Assembly: GCF_003334305.1 (NCBI RefSeq)
Contig: NZ_QOWS01000008.1
Source of the DNA: Escherichia coli
GTDB taxonomy: Bacteria; Pseudomonadota; Gammaproteobacteria; Enterobacterales; Enterobacteriaceae
Length of the DNA stretch: 64,000 nucleotides
Direction: 5' to 3' (one strand)
This document shows positions 23,401-23,472 of this stretch, one piece after another (the stretch's first letter is position 1; every line of letters starts with the position of its first letter). The notes under the pieces were generated by a model, which saw only the letters and a list, made by a program, of their open reading frames with translations, did not search any database and had not been told where the DNA came from. The position numbers and the translations under genes were made by a program.

Positions 23401-23472
23401 GGCATGTCCTTATGACTTCACTTTATGACATCAATAGTATGACATCACAGTATGAAGTCAAGTTTCCCTTCC

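Follow-up and report, generated by a model that had tools for sequence, protein, structure and literature searches.

A predicted array of HicB operator boxes in the promoter of a chromosomal hicAB module of Escherichia coli

The hicAB locus

The window analysed here, meaning the whole 64-kb stretch of Escherichia coli chromosomal DNA, carries nikC-nikD-nikE-nikR on the plus strand, followed by hicB, hicA, yhhJ and rbbA on the minus strand. hicA is followed by hicB with a 4-bp overlap (ATGA), an order kept in nearly all homologous loci, and RefSeq/PGAP names the two products HicA family toxin (91 aa) and HicB family antitoxin (119 aa). The module comprises the following features. The hairpin listed last separates hicB from the convergent nikR and may serve as a terminator in both directions.

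23125-23400, minus strand: hicA, 91 aa, HicA-family toxin whose first ~29 aa form a conserved N-terminal extension
22769-23128, minus strand: hicB, 119 aa, N-terminal HicB-like beta-beta-beta-beta-alpha domain and C-terminal RHH
22682-22714, minus strand: terminator-like AT-rich hairpin with a 15-bp stem, after hicB and facing convergent nikR (consensus scan only)

Residues 30-80 of HicA match Pfam PF07927 (HicA_toxin; E-value = 3.7e-9), while its homologs align across residues 1-91. The N-terminal extension (residues 1-29) is conserved and basic (..LRKKQRxTLxQIF..), and the residues invariant in the family are G49-S50-R51 and H64-x-P66-H67-P68. The catalytic histidine of HicA toxins is expected in a GSH-type motif, and this family has GSR at the place where GSH is expected. 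Neither the single HicA sequence nor the family profile matched a solved HicA structure in the PDB, and hhalign of the family against K-12 HicA gave only a 13-residue, off-register match. A bridge to canonical HicA was also sought in a set of 5.8 billion proteins, where the best 120 profile matches were close relatives only. Five records of HicA family members are named "hexulose-6-phosphate synthase" and two of the HicB family "DNA repair protein", names that are probably propagated mis-annotations.

Residues 60-112 of HicB match Pfam PF05534 (E-value = 3.5e-15), with weak matches to Arc/CopG/FitA RHH families besides, and a profile built from 28 HicB homologs placed residues 76-118 on the complete RHH of both Arc and AmrZ (E-value = 0.018 each), spanning the strand, helix A and helix B. 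In the AF2 model (pLDDT 83.6), four strands and a long helix occupy residues 9-67 with high pLDDT, and two C-terminal helices follow at 87-99 and 104-118. The best Foldseek matches of this model in the PDB were HicB proteins of B. pseudomallei (6g26), Y. pestis and E. coli; the HicB matches comprised 6g26, 4p7d/4p78, 6u0i and 6hpb, together with TTHA0281 (probability ~1.0, E-values of 0.009-0.1), and lower ranks included Arc and the DNA-bound RHH antitoxin AtaR. This fold similarity is one of rank, the scores themselves being weak (best E-value = 0.009, TM ~0.44) because the two domains are joined flexibly and a monomer model cannot form the RHH strand. A single-sequence query of HicB against the PDB returned nothing significant, and the family profile gave only the weak Arc and AmrZ matches, so that sequence searches connected neither protein to a solved HicA or HicB. 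The HMMs of NCBIfam and PADLOC matched neither HicA nor HicB. The Pfam HicB match, the profile alignment to Arc and AmrZ and the two C-terminal helices bear out the original prediction that the 119-aa protein is an RHH antitoxin, and it is the sole DNA-binding protein of the module. With a HicA domain, an N-terminal partial RNase H-like HicB domain, a C-terminal RHH and the operon order hicA-hicB, the locus is, judged by its protein domains and gene order, a class-4 hicAB module (HicA with an RHH HicB; Gerdes 2024, PMC10865869).

Four boxes in the hicA promoter

The segment between yhhJ and hicA holds four 8-bp boxes of the form TGAnnTCA, interleaved with promoter-like elements. Canonical box numbers in the list below are those of the homologous modules described in the next section.

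23401-23472: gap of 72 bp between the hicA ATG (23400, minus strand) and the yhhJ stop codon (23473-23475)
23456-23461, minus strand: -35-like hexamer TTGACT (promoter scan)
23453-23460, minus strand: box A, TGACTTCA, at -60; ortholog of canonical box 2; the preceding T and box A supply the -35 hexamer
23440-23447, minus strand: box B, TGATGTCA, at -47; within the promoter spacer
23434-23439, minus strand: -10-like hexamer TACTAT, between boxes B and C (promoter scan)
23426-23433, minus strand: box C, TGATGTCA, at -33; ortholog of canonical box 3; covers the expected transcription start
23413-23420, minus strand: box D, TGAAGTCA, at -20; ortholog of canonical box 4; within the predicted 5' leader, shortly before the ribosome-binding site
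23407-23411, minus strand: Shine-Dalgarno-like AAGGA, 6 nt before the hicA ATG (read from the sequence)

On the gene (minus) strand the gap contains TTGACTTCAta-ctg-TGATGTCAta-ctat-TGATGTCAta-aag-TGAAGTCAta-aggacatgccATG, and it can be written toward hicA as GGAAGGGAAAC-T-TGACTTCA-tactg-TGATGTCA-tactat-TGATGTCA-taaag-TGAAGTCA-taaggacatgcc-ATG. The boxes start 60, 47, 33 and 20 nt before the hicA ATG, spaced by 13, 14 and 13 bp, and boxes B and C are identical at 10 of 10 positions when their flanks are included. The promoter scan detected a sigma70-like promoter, TTGACT-16-TACTAT, with a 9/12 match; it begins 12 bp past the yhhJ stop, and transcription of hicA is expected to start at about 23427, under box C. 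The same scan detected no second promoter inside hicA. No terminator-like site was found by the scan between the yhhJ stop and the hicA promoter (23401-23475), and read-through from rbbA-yhhJ into hicAB is possible.

The repeats had originally been described as four strings built on a TATGAC unit. All four lie exactly where they had been placed, TATGACTTCA at 23411-23420, TATGACA at 23424-23430, TATGACATCA at 23438-23447 and TATGAAGTCA at 23451-23460, and the second of them in fact extends to TATGACATCA (23424-23433). Likewise, TGACTTCA (23413-23420) and TGAAGTCA (23453-23460), described as an inverted pair, are exact reverse complements. The repeat unit itself has to be redrawn: it is the 8-bp TGAnnTCA, and the TA flanks it on the 3' side (gene strand) with partial conservation.

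Within the window, TATGANNTCA has five matches, four of which fall within these 50 bp. The paired pattern TGANNTCA-N5-TGANNTCA occurs twice, both times here even when one mismatch is allowed, against an expectation of 0.18, and TGACTTCA is found twice in the 64 kb (both strands), both copies being in the hicA promoter gap. A repeat search also returned a direct family and a 21-nt inverted pair in the gap. These window statistics concern patterns that were picked after viewing the sequence, and the decisive support is therefore the independent footprint upstream of homologous hicA genes in other genera.

Phylogenetic footprint in homologous modules

One genome per species was scanned, which gave 49 loci encoding HicB relatives (58-100% identity) in other Enterobacterales, among them Citrobacter, Enterobacter, Serratia, Pectobacterium, Photorhabdus, Xenorhabdus, Pantoea, Erwinia, Buttiauxella and other genera. 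All 8-mers were counted in the 110 nt upstream of hicA, with the expectation taken from the surrounding 5 kb. TGACTTCA ranked first among them: every one of the 34 non-redundant upstream regions contained it, and its 69 copies compare with an expectation of 0.8. Across 37 homologous hicAB modules (a non-redundant set), TGACTTCA/TGACGTCA boxes stand at about -71, -58, -32 and -19 from the hicA ATG. Successive boxes are spaced by exactly 13 bp in 37 of 63 cases and the gap between the two pairs measures 26-27 bp; the boxes therefore share a single lattice of 13-bp steps, with the middle place left unoccupied. In this family the repeat unit is a TGAnnTCA box with the family consensus TGACTTCA and the ideal palindrome TGACGTCA. 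Most families carry four direct TGACTTCA copies, and orientation is biased, the central dinucleotide being CT in 69 boxes and AG in 7. Four perfect TGACGTCA boxes, with start-to-start distances of 13, 28-29 and 13 bp, were found in the homologs on Salmonella IncFII plasmids.

The promoter register is conserved together with the boxes. In 31 of 35 homologs (match of at least 9/12), the -35 hexamer consists of a T and the first five nucleotides of box 2 (TTGACT/G/C), and the -10 hexamer ends on the first T of box 3, as in 25 of these promoters, or just before it, so that the -35 comes from the second box and the -10 adjoins the third. More than 30 genera, whose proteins are 55-85% identical, keep motif, spacing and register. 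DNA upstream of the boxes is unrelated between genera, and the boxes therefore belong to the mobile module; box-bearing modules lie in colicin, ccdAB, integrase and flhA contexts, and on plasmids.

Set against this family, the E. coli array has a layout of its own. Box A is the family consensus 8-mer at a position that corresponds to the -58/-60 box of the homologs. The canonical box 1 is missing in E. coli because the yhhJ stop codon sits in its place. Box B is lineage-specific, being degenerate in Citrobacter sedlakii and an Enterobacter and absent in most genera, and it fills the otherwise empty middle position of the lattice. Accordingly, the four-box count holds for E. coli with one extra box (23440-23447) and without the canonical distal one, and the inverted pair bracketing direct copies, as originally described, is real in E. 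coli and does not extend to the family, where a 13-bp lattice of mostly direct boxes is the rule.

A paralogous E. coli hicAB was observed between flhA and yafL in a record labelled as a plasmid. Its HicB is 45% identical to the one described here and has the strand KRLTLRVP, and its boxes (TGACACCA/TGACGTCA) follow the four-box layout of the homologs. Two chromosome-sized E. coli records in the plasmid set contain two matching places each, which suggests that both hicAB paralogs can occur in one genome; cross-regulation between them is conceivable.

Box sequence and the RHH beta-strand

The boxes change together with the beta-strand of HicB. In 37 regions whose HicB has the strand K[TSR][FL]TLR[YV]P, we counted 106 TGAC-type boxes and no GTAC-type box, whereas six distant plasmid homologs with the strand G[KR][FV][NVS][VLT]R have no TGAC-type box and 12 boxes of the T(G/A)GTA(C/T)(C/T)A type. 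The distant homologs (34-43% identity) come from Shewanella, Ralstonia, Enterobacter, Acinetobacter, Vitreoscilla and Neorhizobium, and their TGGTACCA-type boxes keep the 8+5 = 13-bp geometry in most cases. Because the two box classes were drawn up once the sequences had been inspected, this co-variation is descriptive; there are zero cross-occurrences. In the alignment to Arc, T80, T82 and R84 of HicB fall at the positions of Gln9, Asn11 and Arg13, which are the base-contacting residues of Arc. The switch of box with the HicB beta-strand points to HicB itself as the binder.

Variation among E. coli genomes

Among 5,426 complete E. coli genomes, hicAB is present in 2,071-2,076 (~38%), O157:H7 included, and always at this chromosomal site. 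Genomes without hicAB generally share no homology beyond the yhhJ stop, which assigns all 72 bp to the accessory module. The four-box form occurs in approximately 1,287 genomes, while about 800 lack exactly one 14-bp unit (23434-23447) consisting of one box and the -10 hexamer. This deletion moves TAAAGT into the -10 place, so that a promoter-like TTGACT-16-TAAAGT remains, although the rebuilt -10 would be weaker. In both E. coli three-box examples that were inspected, codon 2 of hicA is TAA and RefSeq calls a 76-aa HicA (WP_042014162.1); Escherichia sp. E1V33 has the three-box form with an intact hicA. The three-box E. coli allele has the look of a toxin gene in decay next to an antitoxin that is still intact. 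The polymorphism, linked as it is to toxin truncation, offers a handle on the decay of toxin-antitoxin modules.

A different state was seen in E. coli HS-02, which has the ISEc1-family transposase gene yhhI beside yhhJ and no hicAB. About 29 bp after the yhhJ stop survive there, including box A (TTGACTTCATA), and this remnant is the scar of a hicAB module that was displaced. Such remnants are apparently present in only about five genomes.

Alternative explanations for the repeats

Inverted repeats at this place could also act as an RNA stem-loop, either in the hicA leader or at the 3' end of a yhhJ read-through transcript, with a role as stabiliser, attenuator or processing site. The lack of a terminator between yhhJ and hicA makes a read-through RNA with all four boxes plausible, and the predicted fold of an 82-nt E. 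coli segment (-25.8 kcal/mol; z = -3.65) joins box A to box D and box B to box C. Some homologs fold well too, with z down to -5.6. However, fold strength varies from z = +1.0 to -5.6 across ten homologs, and the partners differ, A pairing with D in E. coli, 3 with 4 in Xenorhabdus and Leminorella, and 1 with 2 plus 3 with 4 on the Salmonella plasmid, while no pairing is found in Prodigiosinella, Kosakonia and P. fontis. Conservation concerns the sequence of the individual boxes and not complementarity, most families having four direct copies. Moreover, boxes A and B would be untranscribed from the predicted promoter, Rfam has no family match in 22500-23700, and predicted hairpins arise automatically from palindromic protein sites. 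An RNA hairpin was rejected as a family feature, since neither fold z-scores nor pairing partners are conserved, and we regard an RNA function of the repeats as very unlikely.

Slightly less probable still is that the boxes serve a host factor other than HicB, namely NikR, itself an RHH protein encoded next door by the adjacent convergent gene, or a CRP-like regulator. The NikR half-site GTATGA/TCATAC resembles a box with its flank, and GTATGA occurs on the plus strand at 23437-23442 and 23450-23455. The full dyad GTATGA-N16-TCATAC is absent from 23401-23472 even with two mismatches, and a NikR site was rejected; as a positive control, a perfect copy of the dyad was found at 17262-17289, upstream of nikA. 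The CRP site is TGTGA-N6-TCACA, from which TGAnnTCA differs by its 2-nt centre. CRP-type sites do overlap the promoter in K-12 hicAB and in B. pseudomallei hicAB (PMC11594946). Against any host factor, the boxes accompany hicAB amid unrelated neighbours in other genera and on plasmids, and such a factor would not explain why they change with the HicB beta-strand.

Least probable of all, functionless repeats produced by local duplication, slippage or chance in an AT-rich spacer would suit the 10/10 identity of boxes B and C with their flanks and the common allele minus exactly one 14-bp unit, which shows that the repeats do undergo slippage or recombination with one another, but they are excluded by the conservation of motif, spacing and register across more than 30 genera amid unrelated flanking DNA, the paired pattern being expected by chance only 0.18 times per 64 kb.

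A putative HicB operator array

Very probably, the boxes at 23413-23460 constitute the HicB operator array of a class-4 (RHH) hicAB operon. The sites lie over the promoter, they move with the module rather than staying with the host locus, and their sequence varies in step with the residues by which the antitoxin reads DNA. The original prediction of autoregulatory operator repeats for an RHH antitoxin is thereby strengthened through promoter overlap, module-linked conservation and co-variation of box and beta-strand, with binding and repression as its predicted consequences.

Each TGAnnTCA box, a degenerate TGACGTCA, would have the size and symmetry for one RHH dimer, to which two HicB chains would each contribute their C-terminal domain. 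Occupancy would cover the -35 (box A), the spacer (box B), the -10/+1 region (box C) and the leader (box D). Bound HicB, or a HicA-HicB complex, would exclude RNA polymerase, so that hicA-hicB is proposed to be autorepressed; HicA may act here either as a co-repressor or, in excess, as a de-repressor. By analogy with the solved RHH HicBs, which are tetramers with two RHH units, one tetramer per 13-bp box pair is a reasonable prediction: its two RHH dimers would fill the pair, and two tetramers would fill the array.

Some features count against the operator reading. Boxes B and C (TGATGTCA) deviate from the consensus at both central positions. The distance of 13 bp is not a helical repeat, and it would place neighbouring dimers ~85 degrees apart. 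The orientation bias would not be needed by a perfectly symmetric palindrome reader, and it may come from shared descent of the boxes, from the constraint of the -35 or from asymmetric recognition.

We also considered a broader and more tentative reading, which as a whole we hold to be somewhat improbable, combining a fixed HicB operator grammar, a beta-strand code, co-evolution of operator and toxin dosage and a non-canonical HicA. The grammar of this HicB subfamily may consist of 8-bp palindromic boxes that 5-bp spacers hold in a 13-bp lattice. Three beta-strand residues may set the core of the box, T-x-T-x-R specifying TGACGTCA and an N/V-containing strand TGGTACCA; if true, this would amount to a readable and re-programmable RHH recognition code. 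E. coli, with its four-box and three-box genomes, would then offer a natural experiment, in which the 14-bp deletion and the stop at hicA codon 2 seen with it in the two E. coli examples inspected suggest that operator architecture and toxin dosage co-evolve. Separately, the HicA clade with GSR and the basic N-terminal extension might not be a canonical His-dependent RNase.

That an antitoxin represses its own toxin-antitoxin operon is textbook knowledge, and no concept is changed here. A literature search on the locus, the box motif and the RefSeq protein accessions found no paper on the module; the operator grammar is well defined and apparently undescribed, while the type of element is itself ordinary and known. 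Operator motif, spacing and promoter register are now defined for a large, uncharacterised HicAB subfamily, and the exact bases are given for mutation in binding and reporter work. Apart from this, the co-variation of box and beta-strand provides a small test bed for rules of DNA recognition by RHH proteins.

Comparison with known systems

In RHH repressors such as MetJ and Arc/Mnt, one dimer reads ~8 bp through its beta-ribbon and several dimers bind on repeated sites. The MetJ metbox AGACGTCT shares the GACGTC core with the ideal HicB box TGACGTCA. Metboxes are contiguous 8-bp tandems, however, and Arc half-sites are ~11 bp apart, whereas the boxes described here are 13 bp apart with non-conserved 5-bp spacers; furthermore, MetJ, Arc and Mnt are not antitoxins.

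The K-12 HicAB system belongs to the same species and shares the toxin-first operon logic, and its antitoxin represses through an inverted repeat (hicO) near hicA (PMC11594946, PMC10865869). K-12 HicB, however, is a helix-turn-helix protein that represses the internal P2 (of P1/P2) yielding only HicB, whereas the present antitoxin is of the RHH type and its locus lies between nikR and yhhJ. In Y. pestis, B. pseudomallei, S. pneumoniae and S. meliloti, the RHH HicB binds its own promoter; for S. meliloti, the isolated RHH domain suffices for this binding (PMC11594946, PMC6327479). The HicB of B. pseudomallei forms an RHH tetramer on a palindrome over the -10, and excess HicA frees it from DNA (PMC11594946, PMC10865869). 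This protein (6g26) is the best structural match of the E. coli HicB, with an identity of only 9-11% in the structural alignment, and a single palindromic region has been reported for it as opposed to the four boxes here.

Y. pestis HicA3-HicB3 is alike in having a hicA-then-hicB operon, a HicB with a partial RNase H-like domain and an RHH, and more than one operator at the promoter. HicB3 is a tetramer with two RHH units, and its two operators (BS1 and BS2) flank PhicA3, the main one lying over the -10 (PMC11594946). Its structure is among the top fold matches of the E. coli HicB, although no sequence similarity is detectable between the two. Compared by description, BS1 and BS2 are two 15-bp inverted repeats against four 8-bp boxes here, and hicA3 and hicB3 are 174 bp apart where hicA and hicB of the present module overlap by 4 bp.
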